Of a stretch of DNA of 64,000 bases, positions 27,675-36,748 are shown piece by piece. Position numbers and translations under genes: made by a program. The notes under the pieces are model-generated. The model did no database searches. It was given only the letters and a program-made list of their open reading frames with translations, and had not been told where the DNA came from. The stretch is from Herpetosiphon aurantiacus DSM 785 (GTDB lineage Bacteria; Chloroflexota; Chloroflexia; Chloroflexales; Herpetosiphonaceae). The number at the start of each line of letters is the position of its first letter. Positions within the stretch are counted from its first letter, which is position 1. Where the stretch lies: assembly GCA_000018565.1 (NCBI GenBank), contig CP000875.1, positions 249,199-313,198 of the forward strand, read 5' to 3'.

Positions 27675-30600
27675 TTAGACGTTTTCCTCGTCTTCGTCGG
27701 TGCCTAAGAGTTCGCTCAGGGTTGGTTTACGACCTTCTTCAGCTTGCAAACGAGCCATGGCTTGGGCAAACAAGTCATCCTTTGGTCCATTGCCACTGTC
27801 GATGTTGGTGACAGCGTTCAAGGCTTCGTCGAATGAGCGTGGTGGCGCGGGCTTGGGTTCGCTCATCACTGCTGGCGCAGGCGTTGCTGCTGGAACTTCG
27901 CGATCAGCGGGAGTGCTGGTGATTTGGGCAACCCGCAAGGCGGCTTCTTCAGCCAATTTGCGCCGTTGCTCCATCCCCGTACCAGCTGGAATCAGCTTGC
28001 CGATAACCACGTTTTCTTTCAAGCCACGCAGGTAATCGATCTTGCCATTGACGGCAGCTTCAGTCAGCACGCGCGTGGTTTCTTGGAACGAGGCCGCCGA
28101 CAAGAATGAGTCGGTTGACAACGAGGCCTTGGTAATCCCCAACAAAACTGGCACTGCCAATGCTGGGTCACCACCTTGGCTCACAATCGAAGCATTGATC
28201 CGATTGAGTTCGTGGAGTTCGACCAATTCGCCTGGCAAGAGTTCAGTATCGCCTGGCTCTTCGATGCGTACCCGTCGCAACATTTGGCGCACAATCACTT
28301 CAATGTGCTTATCGTTGATCCCCACACCTTGCGAACGATAGACCTTTTGGGCTTCGTTGGTCAGGTATTCTTGAACTGCTTCGCGACCACGCAATTGCAG
28401 CATTTCTTGAGGGTCAGATGAGCCTTCGGTCATTTGTTGGCCAACTTGCACCAAATCGCCATCTTTGACCCGCAAACGAGCAGCGTGGGCAATCACTTCT
28501 TCATGTTCTTCGATGTCTTTGGCTTGAATTACCAAGCGATCATCGTCAACATAGACGTTGCCAGCTAGGCCTGCGACCAATGGTGCACGACCATCGCCAT
28601 CGACATTGCTTTCGGCCAAGAGGTTGCCAATTTCGACAGCATCGCCGTTTTTGACCACCACGCGGTAATCTTTGGGCAACATTTGCTCGTCGGTATAGAC
28701 TTCCTCAGAGACGATCCGCAAGCGCCGAATGCCTTCTTCTTCGCGCACAATCTGGACACGGCCAGCAATCTGAGCCAGCACCGCTTTCCCTTTCGGAATC
28801 CGGGCTTCGAAGATTTCTTGCACCCGTGGCAAACCTTGGGTGATGTCGGTATCAGTTGCCACACCACCAGTGTGGAACGTCCGCAGGGTCAGCTGCGTCC
28901 CTGGCTCACCAATCGATTGCGCCGCGATAATCCCGACAGCTTCGCCAATTTCGACCATCTTGCCAGTGGCAAGGTTGCGGCCATAGCACTTGCGACAAAT
29001 GCCATAATCGGCGTTACAGGTCAGTACCGAACGGACATAAATGCCAAATTCAGCTTGAGCCTCTTTGTCCAACGATTTCAGCACATTCGCAATGTGCTTG
29101 CCATCGTCTTCTAAGATTTCGCTATCGGTATCGAAAATGACTTCACCAGTCACGGGATTAGTGACCGGAGCCACCGTCACGCGGCCAACGATCCGATCTT
29201 CGACCGAGGCCAAAATATCGCGACTGACCCGAATCCACATACCTTCGGTTGTGCCACAATCTTCGATCGTCACGATCACATCTTGGGCCACGTCCACCAA
29301 ACGGCGGGTCAAGTAACCAGCGTCGGCTGTCCGCAAGGCGGTATCAGCCAAACCTTTCCGACCACCGTGGGTTGAGATGAAGTACTCGATAACGCTCAAG
29401 CCTTCGCGGAAGTTGGCGGTAATCGGCAATTCGATAATCCGTCCGGTTGGGTCAGTGGTCAAGCCCCGCATCCCCGCCATCTGGCGAATTTGCTCGACGT
29501 TACCACGCGCACCCGAGGTTGACATCATCGAAACTGGCCCGAATGGATTCAATGAGCGTTGAACTTCAACCTTGATTTGGTTGGTAGCATCGAGCCACGC
29601 CGTAACCACTTCACGATAGCGCTCGTCGTCGGTAATCAAACCACGACGTTGCATCTTTTCGATGTCTTGCACTTTCTTGTAGGTTTCTTGCACAATTGCA
29701 TCTTTGGTATCAGGCACTTCTACGTCCGAAGCCGAGAAGGTCATCCCGCCCAAGGTCGCGTGCTTGAAGCCCAAGGCCTTGATCCGGTCGGCCAAACGCG
29801 CCGTCCGTTCTGAGGCATAGAAACGCAACAGCGATTCTTCCGAGGTTTCAGGGCCGAAACGTTCAATTAATTCTTGATACACGTCGGCGATGATGTTCTC
29901 GCGCTGTGAGTGGAAGCGATAGCAGTCGGCGATCAAGGCTTTCAATCCCGATTTGCCAACCAAGAAGTTGCGATAGTGCAATGGTGAGCGATAGCCGTTT
30001 TCGCCAGCTTTTGGCTCGCCTTGGTAGCGCAACGCATTGTTGAAGATGATCCGCCCAACGCTGGTTTCGATCAAAACGCGTGGCGTAACGCCATCCAACG
30101 ATGGCAATTCCTTTTCACGCAAATCGCTGCCTGGCAGAATGTAATCTTCGATCACAATCCAAACAGGTGCTTGAATATGTACAACACCATTGGTGTAGGC
30201 CAACAAAGCTTCGTCAATTGACCCAAAGCGCTTGCCGCCACCCTTAGCCCCAGGTCGAACTTGGGTCAGGTAGAAACAACCCAACACGATGTCTTGCGAT
30301 GGCGTAATAATTGGGTCGCCAGTTGCCGGTGACAACAGGTTGTAGGTTGAAATCATACGACGACGGGCTTCTTCTTGGGCTTTGCGCGACAATGGTACGT
30401 GCACAGCCATTTGGTCGCCGTCAAAGTCGGCGTTGAATGCGGCACACACCAAGGGGTGCAATTGAATCGCCGAGCCTTCGATCAGCTTGGCTTCAAAGGC
30501 TTGAATCGACAAACGGTGCAGCGAAGGCGCACGGTTCAGCAATACCAAGTAGTCTTTGATGACTTCTTCGAGCACATCCCACACTTCGGGGCGAACCCGC

Positions 30601-32306
30601 TCAACGAAGCGCTTGGCTGATTTGATGTTGTGGGCAAAGCCTTTATCGACCAAGCGGCGCATGACGAATGGCTTGAACAATTCCAAGGCCATTTTCTTGG
30701 GCAAACCACATTGGTGCAATTGCAGGGTTGGTCCGACCACAATCACCGAACGGCCTGAGTAGTCAACCCGCTTACCCAAGAGGTTTTGGCGGAAGCGGCC
30801 TTGCTTGCCTTTGAGCATATCGCTCAGGCTCTTAAGGCGATGCTTGCCCTTGCCACTGACTGGGCGGCCACGGCGACCGTTGTCGATCAAGGCATCAACC
30901 GCTTCTTGCAACATACGTTTTTCGTTGCGCACGATGATTTCAGGAGCGTTCAACTCCATCAAGCGCTTGAGCCGGTTGTTGCGGTTGATCACCCGTCGAT
31001 ACAGGTCGTTCAAGTCAGAGGTCGCAAACCGACCACCATCAAGCTGGACCATCGGGCGCAAATCTGGTGGAATCACTGGCAAGACGGTCATAATCATCCA
31101 TTCAGGACGATTGCCGCTCTTGCGGAATGCTTCAACCACGCGCAGCCGTTTGGTGGCTTTCTTGCGGCGTTGACCCGATGAGCTTTGGACTTCGGCTTGC
31201 ATTTGGTTCGACAATTCGTCGAGATCAACCATCGATACGATGTCGCGCACCGCGCCAGCACCCATATCAGCCTTGAAGGTGTAGGGCGCTAAATCACGCA
31301 GAATCCGATATTCGTTTTCCGAAATAATCCGGTGCAACTGAATATCATCCAAGCGATCAAGCTTGTCTTTTTCTTCTTTGTTGAGATCTTCAAGCTGTTT
31401 GATCAAGGCCGTGGTTAGCCGTTCTTGTTCAGCATCAGCCACCGATTGGCGTTGATCACGCTCGCCGTCGGCCAACAAGCGCACGTTTTCAATCTCGTAT
31501 TCGCGGCGTTGTTCAAGCTTTTCGCGCTCTTGATCGATCAGTTGTTCGAGCTGTTCCAAGCTGCGTTCGCGCACTGGCTCGTTTTCTTCGAGCAGCACCG
31601 TGCCACGATAAACAATATCTTCATCGGCTAGTGCGTCGATGCCGATCAGTTCTTCGAGGTGTTCGCGCAATGCATTGGCTTCATCTTCGATTTCTTGGCG
31701 TTGGCGGGCAAATTGTTCATGCGTTCGCTCCAACGTGCCTTCCATGGCATTATCCATCGCCGCAAGGTCTTTGCTTAAACGGGTTGCCTTTTCGCCACGT
31801 TGTTCGATAATTTTTTCTTCGAGATCTTTGCGCCGCACGCCAAAGTCGGTCTTCATTTGCTCACGTACATTGCCCAATGCCAGATCATCGACATCGGTGA
31901 TAATATACGAGGCAAAATAAAGCACTCGCTCAAGATTACGTGGCGAGATATCTAAAAGTAAACCCAAACGCGATGGTGTGCCTTTAACAAACCAAATATG
32001 CGATACAGGCGAGGCAAGTTTGATATGACCCATGCGATCGCGTCGCACTTTGGATCGGGTGACTTCTACGCCACATTTATCGCATACAATGCCCTTATAA
32101 CGCACACGTTTGTACTTCCCACAGTAACATTCCCAATCGCGGGTAGGTCCGAAGATTTTTTCACAGAACAAGCCATCGCGTTCAGGACGCAGAGTTCTAT
32201 AATTAATCGTCTCTGGTTTGGTTACTTCACCGTGCGACCAGCTCAGGATATCTTCTGGTGAAGCGAGACTGATACGAATTGCATTGAATTCATTGATTTC
32301 GAGCAT
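27675..32306 (-). CDS. rpoC: DNA-directed RNA polymerase subunit beta-prime
   Basis: The canonical N-terminus ([24 protein letters not shown], the CxxC zinc finger), the NADFDGDQM catalytic loop and trigger-loop regions are present. The 1543 aa length indicates lineage-specific insertions. Confidence 0.95.
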
Positions 32307-32323
32307 GGTTGAACGCTCCTCGG

Positions 32324-33025
32324 TTAAGGAAGATAGTTTGCAAAATGCAAGCGCATCTTCTCGGTAATTGTTCCCCGCTCAGGCGACTTCTTTGGTTGCC
32401 ATTGCTCAAATTGCTGCGCGATAGCAGCCTTACGTGCTAGCATCAGGCTATTATTATGATACAGCCATATTGCTAAACACTTAGCACGAATTGTGCTCCA
32501 CTTGATGTAATAATTATTGCGATTATGGCTAATATTTGGTGCTGGAATTCCAGTCATTAATTCAATACATCTACCTGTTTCCAGCAGTAACTGCTGAGAA
32601 CCAGAGTAAATTTGAATGACAGGCCGATCTCCATTCCAAACTAAGGTACCGTCACCATCAATAAACCCACGAATAAAATCCACGAGATATTCGGTTGGTA
32701 CATTAGGAAAGCCTATAACATGCGATTTATTTGGAATTCCCCCAAGATTGAGTAGATCGTGATACAAGCCTTGATTGCAAATAACCATTTCGTGACAGGT
32801 TGATTCTTTACGTACTTGACGCAAAGCTGTTGTCGCACCCATAGCATCGGCAATTGCTTGTAAGTGTTCTATATCAATACTAGCGATCTGAACAAAATGA
32901 CCACCAGTGTTGGAATGAATTCGCATATATCCATCAGCCCACCAATAGCCTAGAACATAGGCCATGGTTGGTGACCATGTGCGAAAGAAAGGATTGCTAG
33001 CAGCAGGTCGAGCCATGGTTAGCAC
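32324..33025 (-). mobile_element. Free-standing double-motif LAGLIDADG homing endonuclease ORF between rpoB and rpoC
   Basis: Two LAGLIDADG-type motifs are present (VLGYWWADGYM and FIRGFIDGDGTL) about 95 residues apart. GC is about 42% against about 55% in the flanks. It is a separate ORF with its own stop, 17 nt upstream of rpoC and 70 nt downstream of rpoB. Confidence 0.75.
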
Positions 33026-33094
33026 CGTGCGATAGAGAGGCGGTAGTTCACGTCATTGGGAACTACCGCGAGAGCAATGGATCGCAACCGAAGT

Positions 33095-36000
33095 TTAGAG
33101 TTCGCCTTTTTCCATCCCCGACAGGTTGATGCCGTCGAGTGAGATTAAGTCATCGGCTTCGCTATCGGTTAGCTCAACCGGGCGTTCATCAGCGGTCAAC
33201 ACATCGACCGACAGACCAAGCGATTGCAACTCTTTGATCAAGACCTTGAACGATTCAGGTACGCCGGCTTCGTTGATTGGATCGCCCTTGACGATCGCCT
33301 CATACGTTTTGACCCGACCAACCACGTCGTCGGACTTGACCGTGAGCATTTCTTGGAGAATGTAAGCAGCGCCATAGGCTTCGAGCGCCCAAACTTCCAT
33401 TTCACCAAAGCGCTGACCACCGAACTGAGCCTTACCGCCGAGTGGCTGTTGAGTCACCAAGCTGTAAGGGCCAGTTGAGCGAGCGTGGATCTTATCTTCC
33501 ACCAAGTGCGCCAACTTGAGCATATATTTGTAACCGACGGTCACTGGATTATCGAATTTCTCGCCAGTGCGGCCATCGTAGAGATCGATCTTGGCATCGG
33601 ATGGCAGGCCTGATTCAGCGAGAGCTTTGATAATATCCTCATCGCGTGCGCCGTCGAAGACTGGCGTGGCGATACGGAAGCCCAAGCGTGAAGCAGCCCA
33701 ACCCAAGTGAGTTTCCAAAATCTGGCCGATGTTCATGCGGCTTGGCACCGCCAACGGATTCAAGACGATATCAACAGGCGTGCCATCGGGTAAGAATGGC
33801 ATATCTTCGATTGGCAGCACGCGGCTGACCACGCCTTTATTGCCGTGGCGGCCTGCCATCTTATCGCCTGGGCTGATTTTGCGCTTTTGACAGAGCATCA
33901 CCCGCACCGTTTGATTGACACCGACAGGCATTTCAGTTGTTTCGTCGCGGGTAAAGACCTTGACATCAATGACTTTACCTTTGACCCCGTTGGGAACGCG
34001 CAAGCTACTATCTTTAACTTCGCGGGCCTTTTCACCGAAGATAGCTCGCAAGAGCCGTTCTTCAGCGGTCAGGTCAGTTTCGCCCTTGGGTGTGATTTTG
34101 CCAACCAAAATATCGTTTGGCTGAACATCAGCACCAACATAGATAATCCCGCGTTCGTCCAAGTTTTTAAGGCTATCTTGGCCGACGTTAGGAATATCGC
34201 GGGTAATTTCTTCGGGGCCAAGTTTGGTATCGCGAGCTTCGACTTCATATTTTTCAATGTGAATCGAAGTGAAAATATCTTCGCGTACCAAGCGTTCGCT
34301 AACCAAAATCGCGTCTTCGAAGTTCCCACCTTCCCAAGGCATGTAGGCCACGAGAATATTTTGGCCAAGCGCTAGCTCGCCATTTTGGGTCGAAGAACTA
34401 TCGGCAATTACCTCGCCAGCCCGAATTTTATCGCCAATAAAGACGCTTGGGCGTTGGTTGATACAGGTATCTTGGTTCGAGCGCAAGAACTTGAGCAATG
34501 GATAGGTGCGTTCAGTGCCATCGTTTTCGCGAACCAAAATGCGTTCGCTATTCGATGAAAGCACCACAGCATCGGCACGAGCCACAACCACCTGACCTGA
34601 GTCGCGGGCGGCTTTGTGCTCCATGCCAGTACCGATAATTGGCGCATCAGGGCGCAACAACGGCACAGCTTGGCGCTGCATGTTCGAACCCATCAAGGCA
34701 CGGTTTGCGTCGTCGTGTTCCAAGAACGGAATCAACGCGGTTGAAACACTGACCACCTGCTTGGGCGAAACGTCCATATAATCGACCGAGGCGATTGGAG
34801 CTTGGACGAAATCTTCAGCATGGCGGCATGAAACCGTTGGGTCGATAAAGCGGAAGCGTTCGTCAAGCAAAGCGTTAGCTTGGGCAATGATGAACTTATC
34901 TTCTTCATCGGCTGGCAAATAGTCGGTTTCATTGGTGACAACTGGGTGAATTTTGATTGCACGTAAGGGCAAATCGGCAATTTTGGTTGCCAAGGCGCGG
35001 TCAATTTCTGAACCAGCTTCGGCAATCAAATCGCCAGTCGCTGGGTTGACAATATCTTCACGCAGCAATTGTCCATTGAGCACACCGATCGCAATGATTT
35101 TGGCTAATTCAGCATCGACCCGTGCCCCAGCGCGAGCGATCAACTCGCCAGTGCTGAGGTGGCGCACATCGCGGGTAGTCATGCCACGTTCAAGCCAGAG
35201 CGGGGCATTATCAACTTCGCGATAGACACGGCGATAGGGCGTTTCAAGGAAGCCCATTTCGTTAACCCGTGCAAAGGTTGACATCGTACCGATCAGACCG
35301 ATGTTTGGACCTTCAGGCGTTTCAACCGGGCAGATCCGGCCATAGTGCGAGTGGTGAACGTCGCGAACCTCAAAGCCTGCACGGTCGCGGCTCAGACCAC
35401 CAGGGCCAAGCGCTGAAAGGCGGCGTTTGTGGGTCAACTCAGCCAATGGATTGGTTTGATCCATGAACTGGGAAAGTTGCGAACCGCCGAAGAACTCGCG
35501 CATAGCGGCAACCACAGGCCGGATATTGATCAAGCCATTGGGAGTTGCAGCTTCTGGTTCTTGCAACGACATGCGTTCTTTGATCACCCGTTCCATACGC
35601 AGCAAACCGACGCGGAATTGGGTTTGAATCAATTCGCCGACAGTCCGCACGCGGCGGTTACCGAGGTGGTCAATATCATCGGGGTTGCCAATCCCATTAT
35701 TGAGATCGATCAAGCGCTCGACGATTTTGAACAAATCGGCTTTGCTGAGCACGCGCATGGTTAGGCTGGGAATTTCTTGGCCTTCGAAGAGGCGGCTTTT
35801 TTCCCACAGATTGCGATTTAATTTATAGCGACCGACTTTGCCCAAGTCGTAGCGGCGGGCGTTGAACAGCAAGGTTTCCAATAACGAACGGGCGTTATCG
35901 ACAGTTGCTGGATCGCCTGGGCGCAAGCGCTTGTACAATTCCATAATCGCTTCTTTGGCATTGGTTGATGGATCTTTATCCAAGGTTGAAGCGATATATT

Positions 36001-36748
36001 GGTGGTCGCGGTTAACATCGACATTGGCGAATAAGGCGATAACGTCTTCATTCAGCCCACATTGATCGAGTGGTTTATCGCCAAATAAGCCGAGCACCGC
36101 GCGGATCAAGATCGTGACTGGCAACTTACGTTTGCGGTCAACCTTGACCGAAAGCACATCGCGCTTATTCGTTTCAAACTCCAGCCAAGCACCACGGTTG
36201 GGGATCAACTTAGCACTGTGGAGCGAACGACCGCTGGTTGGCTCTTTTTCTTCCTTGAAATACACGCCAGGTGAGCGAATCAACTGCGACACAACAACCC
36301 GTTCTGCGCCGTTGATCACAAACGTCCCATTATTGGTCATCAATGGGAAGTCACCAAGGAAGATATCGCTTTCCTTGATTTCACCGGTAGTTTTGACCTT
36401 CAAGCGCACGCGAACCCGCAGGGGGGCGGCGTAGGTCATATCACGTTCACGGCACTCAAATTCGTTATAGCGGGGTTCGCCGAACTCATAATCGCTAAAC
36501 GAAAGCTCTAGGTTTTTGCCCGTGAAATCGTCGATGGGATTAATTTCATCGAACAATTCACGTAGCCCTTCACGTTGAAACCAGCGAAACGAATCGATCT
36601 GGGTTTCGATCAACTTCGGTAATTCAATCGCATCGGTAATGCGAGCAAAACTCCGACGTGATGCGATCATCGCACGACCTTGGTCATCGCGGAAGATACT
36701 GGACGTGATCAGCGGTGGCAGGATAACAGTTGACTGAACTTGCGGCAT
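33095..36748 (-). CDS. rpoB: DNA-directed RNA polymerase subunit beta
   Basis: rpoB hallmark blocks are present: the rifampicin-cluster region GPNIGLIG...[14 protein letters not shown] and the C-terminal [15 protein letters not shown]. The length is 1217 aa. A GGGAG RBS lies upstream. Confidence 0.95.

Follow-up and report, generated by a model that had tools for sequence, protein, structure and literature searches.

A putative free-standing LAGLIDADG homing endonuclease gene in the rpoB–rpoC spacer of Herpetosiphon aurantiacus and other Chloroflexia

Structure of the locus

A stretch of 64,000 nt from Herpetosiphon aurantiacus DSM 785 (contig CP000875.1, positions 249,199 to 313,198; hereafter the window) was analyzed. 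The element under study is an open reading frame (ORF) on the minus strand of the window, located between rpoB and rpoC and encoding a putative LAGLIDADG homing endonuclease. In its GTG-initiated form the ORF begins 69 nt after the rpoB stop codon and ends 17 nt before the rpoC ATG. An earlier note on this DNA had described a 233-aa ORF with two LAGLIDADG motifs, and both motifs were found as stated (Table 1). Their spacing was measured as about 93 residues, close to the 95 or so given there. The placement between rpoB and rpoC also stood; the 17 nt that were said to precede the rpoC ribosome-binding site (RBS) instead include its Shine-Dalgarno (SD) sequence. The GC content of the ORF was 0.42, in line with the earlier value of about 42%, and its GC content at third codon positions (GC3) was 0.34. 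The adjacent 1.2 kb of rpoB and rpoC had a GC content of 0.52 and 0.49 and a GC3 of 0.57 and 0.49, respectively.

All homologues start with M-[A/G/P]-R at the position of the window ATG at 33016, from which the window product reads MARPAAS, and the in-frame GTG is absent from L001–L003 and L005. Because all homologues begin at this position and sister genomes have no in-frame GTG, the real start is probably ATG 33016, which gives a protein of 230 aa. Residue numbers below follow the GTG form.

The earlier note had held that the ORF is out of frame with both polymerase genes and hence no intein. The second part was borne out and the first was not. In the window the ORF shares the frame of rpoB (69 nt = 23 codons), yet the rpoB stop and one further stop intervene. 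In sister genomes the spacer to the ATG is 77 nt, against 78 nt in the window, and the frame relation with rpoB is lost. The shared frame in the window says nothing for or against an intein. Chloroflexia genomes with and without the gene agree in the conserved residues at which RpoB ends and RpoC starts. No Hint splicing domain was found in the ORF protein by Pfam. A permissive Rfam scan (E ≤ 10) of positions 31500–34000 gave no group I or group II intron and returned only weak, unrelated chance matches, as the earlier note had anticipated for a group I core. Since RpoB and RpoC are complete with conserved ends, and neither a Hint domain nor an intron was detected, the gene is best described as free-standing, being neither an intein nor intron-encoded.

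Table 1. Features of the rpoB–rpoC locus in the window
Feature	Position	Strand	Details
LAGLIDADG endonuclease ORF, probable true extent	32324..33016	minus	ATG 33016..33014; 230 aa; stop 32326..32324
Mechanical ORF form	32324..33025	minus	GTG at 33025; 233 aa
rpoB, RNA polymerase beta subunit	33095..36748	minus	Complete, 1217 aa; upstream flank, likely homology arm
rpoC, RNA polymerase beta' subunit	27675..32306	minus	Complete, 1543 aa; downstream flank, likely homology arm
rpoB–ORF spacer	33017..33094	minus	78 nt (to ATG); 10-bp hairpin 33040..33069 without T-run
ORF–rpoC spacer	32307..32323	minus	17 nt, CCGAGGAGCGTTCAACC; holds rpoC SD GAGGAG
First LAGLIDADG motif VLGYWWADGYM	32924..32956	minus	Residues 24–34; putative catalytic Asp31 = 32933..32935; at end of helix 19–31
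Second LAGLIDADG motif FIRGFIDGDGTL	32642..32677	minus	Residues 117–128; putative catalytic Asp125 = 32651..32653
Exchangeable core cassette	32522..32929	minus	Codons 33–168; both beta-sheet DNA-binding regions and second motif; lowest GC3 of the gene (0.27)
Conserved C-terminal part	32327..32521	minus	Codons 169–233; last core helix, two extra helices and basic stretch; evolves with host flanks

The RpoC protein of the window (1543 aa) has a charged insertion after about residue 140 that looks coiled-coil-like by eye. Across Chloroflexia, RpoC is about 62% identical over the first 400 aa and 91–96% identical over the first 140 aa; the insertion is far less conserved.

Protein family and predicted structure

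The protein matched Pfam PF14528 (LAGLIDADG_3) in two stretches with 38.1 bits (cut-off 22.5, E = 1.9e-9). An AlphaFold model built with 22 homologues had a predicted local distance difference test (pLDDT) score of 80.4 and a predicted template modelling (pTM) score of 0.82. The model showed two alpha-beta-beta-alpha-beta-beta-alpha units followed by two extra C-terminal helices. When it was compared with the Protein Data Bank (PDB) by Foldseek, the top match was I-Tsp061I (E = 1.3e-8), followed by I-DmoI, PI-PfuI, the Tli VMA intein endonuclease, the bI3 maturase and WhiA. The Foldseek probability was 1.00 for I-Tsp061I, I-DmoI and PI-PfuI. The aspartates that close the two motif helices, D31 and D125, were invariant in 22/22 sequences of the first alignment; in a set of 145 non-identical homologues their conservation was at least 95%.

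The sole hit of a PDB sequence search was weak (2dch, E = 0.026). The family profile found no PDB sequence at E ≤ 0.01, so the link to solved enzymes is at the fold level only. An NCBIfam search gave no meaningful family, and Pfam revealed no helix-turn-helix (HTH), WhiA or other extra domain besides LAGLIDADG_3. The profile match above threshold and the double-motif fold of the model agreed with the earlier assignment to LAGLIDADG. The results confirmed that the protein belongs to the double-motif, single-chain LAGLIDADG homing endonuclease family, with the corresponding predicted fold.

Distribution among genomes

A database search gave 416 homologues. The best 120 of these were full-length, were 53–97% identical to the window protein, and came from Herpetosiphon, Oscillochloris, Chloroflexales and Roseiflexaceae. 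The nearest was that of Herpetosiphon sp. NSE202 (97%), followed by those of H. geysericola and H. giganteus (95%). Some database records name members of the family "LAGLIDADG family homing endonuclease" or "hypothetical protein". The exact window protein was not on record in the contig index, and literature searches yielded no description of an endonuclease gene in the rpoB–rpoC spacer of Chloroflexia.

Genome loci were collected with one genome per species (GTDB). At every locus with at least 52% identity (29/29), rpoB ended upstream and rpoC started downstream of the gene. Three further occupied loci (L089, L168 and L169) were reached via RpoB or RpoC. Relatives of 42% identity or less were found in unrelated contexts, including second copies in the same Chloroflexia metagenome-assembled genomes (MAGs). 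Other hosts of such relatives included Ktedonobacteraceae, DPANN archaea, Candidate Phyla Radiation bacteria and Bacillaceae. Phage and plasmid collections held only relatives below 34% identity. These contexts indicate a lineage specific to one chromosomal slot in the class Chloroflexia.

Several distant relatives had contexts of their own. In DPANN and other archaeal MAGs (L037:5845-7833, L038:5761-7818 and L045:5857-7878), LAGLIDADG relatives of 29–33% identity lie directly upstream of metK, a gene for a bacterial-type S-adenosylmethionine synthetase. The 57–69 nt "spacer" at these loci codes for the true MetK N-terminus (...FTSESV.EGHPDK). The metK reading is interrupted after GHPDK and before ...CDQISD, by a stop-containing insert of about 21–29 nt in L037 and L045 and by a 1-nt frameshift in L038. 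A mini-intron is one possible explanation; another is that a target site has been interrupted next to a free-standing endonuclease, in the manner of "collaborative homing". In a Chloroflexia MAG (L048:6001-8042), a LAGLIDADG paralogue of about 37% identity is followed at once by an RRXRR-HNH endonuclease gene (PF14239 + PF01844). In Bacillaceae (Sporosarcina, Lederbergia, Lysinibacillus and others; L049–L080), ORFs of 261–364 aa match the N-terminal half only, at 33–41% identity. Two of them (L052:5803-6996 and L072:5809-6999) are followed by a 123-aa ORF without a Pfam match.

State of the junction in Chloroflexia

The junctions of named genomes were reached through their RpoB homologues. Among 42 sampled Chloroflexia junctions, 31 carried an intact gene, 4 a decayed gene and 7 were empty, counts that reflect uneven sampling. 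Intact loci were found in Herpetosiphon, Oscillochloris, Roseiflexaceae and others. The empty junctions were those of Chloroflexus islandicus (146-nt spacer), a Chloroflexus sp. (310 nt), a Roseiflexus sp. (86 nt), Kallotenue papyrolyticum, Kouleothrix and one Herpetosiphonaceae MAG (79 nt each), and the metagenomic Chloroflexia contig L088. No gene remnants were detected in the empty Chloroflexia spacers by nhmmer.

The four decayed copies differed in what was left. In the spacer of Ca. Viridilinea mediisalina, the promoter, the leader hairpin and gene nt 1–103 remain (E = 4e-27). In that of Ca. Chloroploca asiatica, gene nt 565–695 remain (E = 9e-24). The L029 copy has lost about 63 codons, and the L028 copy combines an internal deletion, a frameshift and an in-frame stop.

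Two assemblies need comment. L028 (JAAUTF010000429.1) is labelled Candidatus Gracilibacteria; its rpoB and rpoC are of Chloroflexia type, 83% and 62% identical to those of the window, and it is very likely mis-binned. Its coverage is just 2.75x, and some of its lesions could be sequencing errors. In L027:4731-6000 (long-read MAG MFD02840.bin.2.207), the rpoB 3' end lies in the apparent spacer and rpoB seems frameshifted, with an intact endonuclease ORF. The frameshift is probably a long-read indel error.

As an outgroup control, and not as an estimate of occupancy, a metagenome scan was anchored on the RpoC N-terminus and yielded mostly non-Chloroflexia junctions. Among the matches listed, 43 outgroup junctions had spacers of at most 249 nt and no such ORF.

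The junction is thus polymorphic among relatives at exactly the same site, which was found occupied, decayed or empty, as the earlier note had proposed to check. Because empty sites and decayed copies occur within Chloroflexia, the gene is dispensable. Every stage of the published homing cycle is represented at this one junction. The earlier note had regarded an ORF universally present under purifying selection, with no such polymorphism, as contrary to its claim. Strong selection and very wide spread do hold here; the seven empty and four decayed junctions contradict universal presence.

Selection and exchange of the core

The ratio of nonsynonymous to synonymous substitution rates (dN/dS) was computed by the Nei-Gojobori method, which is saturated in deep comparisons. 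Between close relatives carrying the same allele, the core dN/dS was 0.03–0.11. Intact copies are thus under strong purifying selection. Given the Pfam match, the 416 homologues and this within-class dN/dS, a chance ORF is not a credible explanation.

Herpetosiphon species were compared in 150-nt windows, and rpoB and rpoC were 87–100% identical. When H. llansteffanensis (L005) and a related MAG (L004) were compared with the window, the middle of the ORF was only 61–69% identical while the ORF ends were about 95% identical. Codon by codon, the divergence starts at codon 33, directly after WWADG, and ends at about codon 168. The same pattern with coinciding breakpoints was found between Ca. Oscillochloris fontis and O. 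trichoides DG6 (L013/L024) and between L008 and L019. In all three pairs (window/L005, L013/L024 and L008/L019), the termini had a dS of 0.1–0.3 and the flanks were 93–95% identical, whereas the core had a dN of 0.36–0.43 and saturated synonymous sites. The pair L006/L009 showed the opposite pattern, with nearly identical cores and different 3' tails.

The results indicated cassette-like allele replacement of the core in three independent sister pairs. Because synonymous sites are saturated too, the core difference is better explained by old divergence joined by recombination than by fast protein evolution. A chimeric assembly or binning artefact is ruled out as the cause of the mosaic because several mosaic genomes are cultured isolates.

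Trees were built by neighbour-joining from simple distances, and the gene tree and the flank tree disagreed. Two core clades were seen: class A with GG[MI]PNKS.VI and RGF[VI]DGDG, and class B with GGTPRKSRTI and RGV[IV]DGDG. Both classes were found within Herpetosiphon, Herpetosiphonaceae and the Oscillochloris group. The idea that A and B are two specificity types was dropped, with a bootstrap of 0.68 and two clean discriminating positions in 145 sequences; they are now treated as loose clades.

The GC3 of the ORF was below that of the flanks in every lineage and followed host GC. A gradient of core < termini < flanks was present in every host. The low GC is therefore a lasting feature of the gene wherever it occurs and does not signal recent arrival. 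The idea that the swapped core came recently from a donor of foreign base composition was rejected, as the GC3 was the same in both cores of each pair.

At six Herpetosiphon loci, the last 35 or so ORF codons (window 32327..32430) had 0–1 nucleotide differences. At the same loci, the last 150 nt of rpoB (33095..33244) were 99–100% identical, synonymous sites included, against 87–97% in typical rpoB and rpoC windows. This identity could stem from constraint imposed by the initiation of rpoC translation, from a conversion tract of recent date or from a target site.

Expression signals

In the rpoB–ORF spacer of the window, no sigma-70-like promoter, no SD-sequestering hairpin (leader z = −0.07) and no obvious SD sequence were found. 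Because it has no promoter of its own and a poor RBS, the window copy is most likely co-transcribed with rpoB–rpoC and translated at a low level. In 16 Chloroflexales loci, a promoter-like TTGACA-17-TAnnnT box was found 34–37 nt upstream of the start codon. Leaders were folded one sequence at a time and compared with shuffles. A hairpin with its 3' arm over the RBS GGAG was found in 9/12 leaders (z −3.7 to −7.1; 0/200 shuffles as stable). The stem sequences vary between loci, and RNAalifold gave no consensus leader structure, the hairpins lying in different registers.

The ORF stop was 5–20 nt from the rpoC start in nearly all occupied loci. In Chloroflexaceae it overlaps the rpoC SD (CAGGAGTGA), and the empty Chloroflexus sites have the same SD context, ACAGGAGTAAGCCCAC-ATG. 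The insertion therefore keeps the signals for rpoC translation intact.

An inverted repeat of 11–13 bp was also observed about 75 to 40 nt upstream of the ORF start, e.g. TCCGGTAGCGG ... CCGCTACCGGA in L011 (alignment columns 4–37). It occurs in L007, L008, L010, L011, L014, L016, L017, L019, L086 and L089, brackets the −35 box and extends into the −10 box of the promoter-like element. Its arms showed apparent co-variation between some loci; only 63% of cells pair and the covariation is weak. The repeat may act as an operator, may form a stem in transcripts that read through from rpoB, or may have no meaning.

Proposed mechanism and alternatives

The gene probably represents a free-standing LAGLIDADG homing endonuclease lineage of the Chloroflexia rpoB–rpoC spacer that is maintained by recurrent invasion, decay and loss. 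The enzyme would make a site-specific double-strand break in chromosomes that have no gene or a different or decayed allele. The cut would fall in or close to the junction, or within the highly conserved neighbouring end of rpoB or rpoC. Homologous recombination with an incoming occupied copy would then mend the break, the highly conserved polymerase genes serving as homology arms, and the gene would be copied in. After fixation, decay and deletion would recreate empty sites open to re-invasion, which corresponds to the homing cycle. Nuclease activity, the identity of the target and replacement driven by the endonuclease rather than by general recombination are inferred. The earlier note had left open whether the gene is domesticated or homes into empty junctions; the evidence favours homing without proving it.

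Several observations weigh against this explanation. Between occupied and empty genomes, no systematic difference marking a target or an immunity polymorphism was found in the rpoB 3' end, the rpoC 5' end or the SD region. Persistence and conservation are far above those of the classic cycle, with 31/42 sampled Chloroflexia junctions intact across orders. No vector for the gene was found in phage and plasmid collections. The window allele itself deviates at near-invariant sites (83–87 C-S-K-E-M to C-N-Q-G-L, and H116D). No close donor of either Herpetosiphon core was found (core identity of at most 61%), and the swapped cores match the AT-shifted GC3 of the alleles they replaced, both cores of each pair being alike. 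Because both cores share the AT-shifted GC3 and no close donor was found, the alleles seem to have been long resident in similar genomes, either circulating among relatives or co-existing for long. The same mosaic would result, without endonuclease-driven conversion, if alleles had co-existed for a long time and recombined in the ordinary way.

A more specific reading is conceivable, and we hold it only tentatively: the A and B core cassettes may form an ancient trans-species polymorphism, co-existing since before the Herpetosiphonales–Chloroflexales split and replacing each other by targeted gene conversion. It is likewise doubtful, though worth stating, that each allele or empty site serves as substrate for another, while the gene termini and the polymerase genes provide fixed arms for recombination. 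If true, alleles in the core transcription operon of a free-living bacterial class would be engaged in a natural and long-lived gene-drive contest, and adjacent rpoB and rpoC sequence could move between species.

Domestication is unlikely. An old capture would have given a LAGLIDADG protein a host role, as a DNA-binding regulator, an RNA polymerase factor like WhiA or a modulator of rpoC, and ordinary purifying selection would have kept it. Such a role would fit the single slot across Chloroflexia orders at dN/dS 0.03–0.11, the stop codon integrated with the rpoC RBS in nearly all loci, and the conserved C-terminal extension with two helices and a basic stretch beyond the nuclease core. RNA polymerase-bound WhiA is among the best structural matches (8dy7_I, TMq 0.61), and a host-useful function is one published explanation of long persistence (PMC3229294). 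However, the gene is dispensable: seven sites are cleanly empty, one of them in Herpetosiphonaceae, and close relatives of occupied genomes carry four decayed copies. Swaps of the DNA-binding core between sister genomes are not expected from a simple housekeeping role, nor does domestication sit well with a GC3 persistently below that of the flanks. The protein has no WhiA HTH and no extra Pfam domain. Known domesticated forms such as WhiA and maturases lost the motif aspartates, both of which are kept here.

Less probable still is a selfish "addiction" nuclease without horizontal transfer, which would cut chromosomes newly rid of the gene (post-segregational killing), the mosaics arising from ordinary recombination of old alleles. 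The long persistence under purifying selection and the scarce signs of recent long-range transfer (cores compositionally at home, no close donor) are consistent with it, as is the lack of a vector in phage and plasmid collections. Models by Yahara et al., as presented within PMC3229294, predict that empty, defective and functional alleles co-exist either stably or in cycles. On the other hand, many lineages have lost the gene cleanly or stepwise, and loss must therefore be survivable. The addiction explanation overlaps with homing and differs from it chiefly in the amount of inter-strain transfer, which sequence data alone cannot separate.

An intein or intron-encoded endonuclease with a missed host element, or a sequencing frameshift hiding an in-frame fusion with rpoB or rpoC, would accord with the shared rpoB frame in the window and with the intein endonuclease domains among the structural neighbours, and it is effectively refuted by the two stops between rpoB and the ORF, the loss of the frame relation in sister genomes, the RpoB end and RpoC start conserved in all Chloroflexia at occupied and empty sites, the negative Pfam and Rfam results, and the identical architecture in 31 independent assemblies.

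The locus is of wider interest. In cellular bacteria, some of them cultured (Herpetosiphon, Oscillochloris), it offers every state of the homing cycle at one defined site, and the persistence of homing endonuclease genes and the competition of alleles become testable. Repair-associated co-conversion could move rpoB and rpoC between species, which matters since both are common phylogenetic markers. Hundreds of natural variants of one LAGLIDADG scaffold with an exchangeable DNA-binding module may aid specificity engineering. The low GC content of the gene is no longer readable as a sign of recent transfer.

Comparison with known systems

Free-standing endonuclease genes of phage T4 are intergenic between conserved genes, e.g. 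mobE between nrdA and nrdB, and some are promoter-less (PMC2988022). Among known systems, the free-standing endonucleases of T-even phages and especially mobE (PMC2988022, PMC2790892) appear to be the closest analogue in behaviour and placement. Like the Chloroflexia gene, mobE stands alone between the genes for two subunits of one essential enzyme. Related T-even phages likewise differ in whether a given site carries the gene. Some are promoter-less cassettes on the host operon, as in the window, and others bear promoters, as in Chloroflexales. Their RBS is weak or masked, and the signals of the downstream essential gene are preserved or embedded, which is again similar. The T-even enzymes are GIY-YIG or HNH nucleases (mobE is HNH), whereas the Chloroflexia enzyme is of the LAGLIDADG family, and they reside in phage genomes that recombine in co-infection rather than in cellular chromosomes. 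The T-even enzymes have known cleavage sites, at distances of hundreds to thousands of bp, whereas cleavage by the Chloroflexia enzyme is putative. Persistence in hosts at the level of a class is not known for T4 elements.

The closest structures are the archaeal I-DmoI and I-Tsp061I (PDB 2vs7, 2dch). Both are two-motif monomers of about 190–230 aa with an acidic residue ending each motif helix, consistent with the predicted Chloroflexia protein. They differ in being encoded in archaeal rRNA introns and are 16–21% identical to it. The conserved C-terminal extension of about 45 residues is an additional part of the Chloroflexia protein.

The homing cycle and the long-term persistence of endonuclease genes have been described for introns and inteins (Goddard and Burt; Gogarten and Hilario; PMC3229294). 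The Chloroflexia gene shares with these elements the occurrence of functional, defective and empty alleles at one site across related taxa, the conflict between gene tree and host tree, and purifying selection on functional copies. Unlike them, it lacks a splicing element. Its intergenic position makes imprecise deletions tolerable, and remnants of one end of the gene or the other were seen. The intact fraction in Chloroflexia is also unusually high, and turnover proceeds by an internal cassette and not by the whole element alone.

WhiA (DUF199; PDB 3hyi, 8dy7) is a LAGLIDADG-derived transcription factor. It resembles the Chloroflexia protein in the double LAGLIDADG fold, the C-terminal extension and its bacterial, chromosomal setting. 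A link to RNA polymerase is a further shared feature, and the structural match was made by Foldseek. WhiA has no catalytic acidic residues and carries an HTH domain. It is near-universal in its lineages, whereas the Chloroflexia gene is patchy, and its product keeps the aspartates, with no HTH detected.

F-CphI, which lies by the psbA intron of cyanophage S-PM2 and takes part in "collaborative homing" (PMC6083498), is likewise free-standing beside a highly conserved target gene. It belongs to another nuclease family and relies on a neighbouring intron that interrupts the target, unlike the rpoB–rpoC locus, which has no intron. The DPANN metK loci described above may be closer to this model than the rpoB–rpoC locus is. 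The class of mechanism is therefore known. What is new is a LAGLIDADG enzyme in such a role in cellular chromosomes, its class-wide persistence in one slot of a core transcription operon, and the cassette-like turnover of its DNA-binding core.

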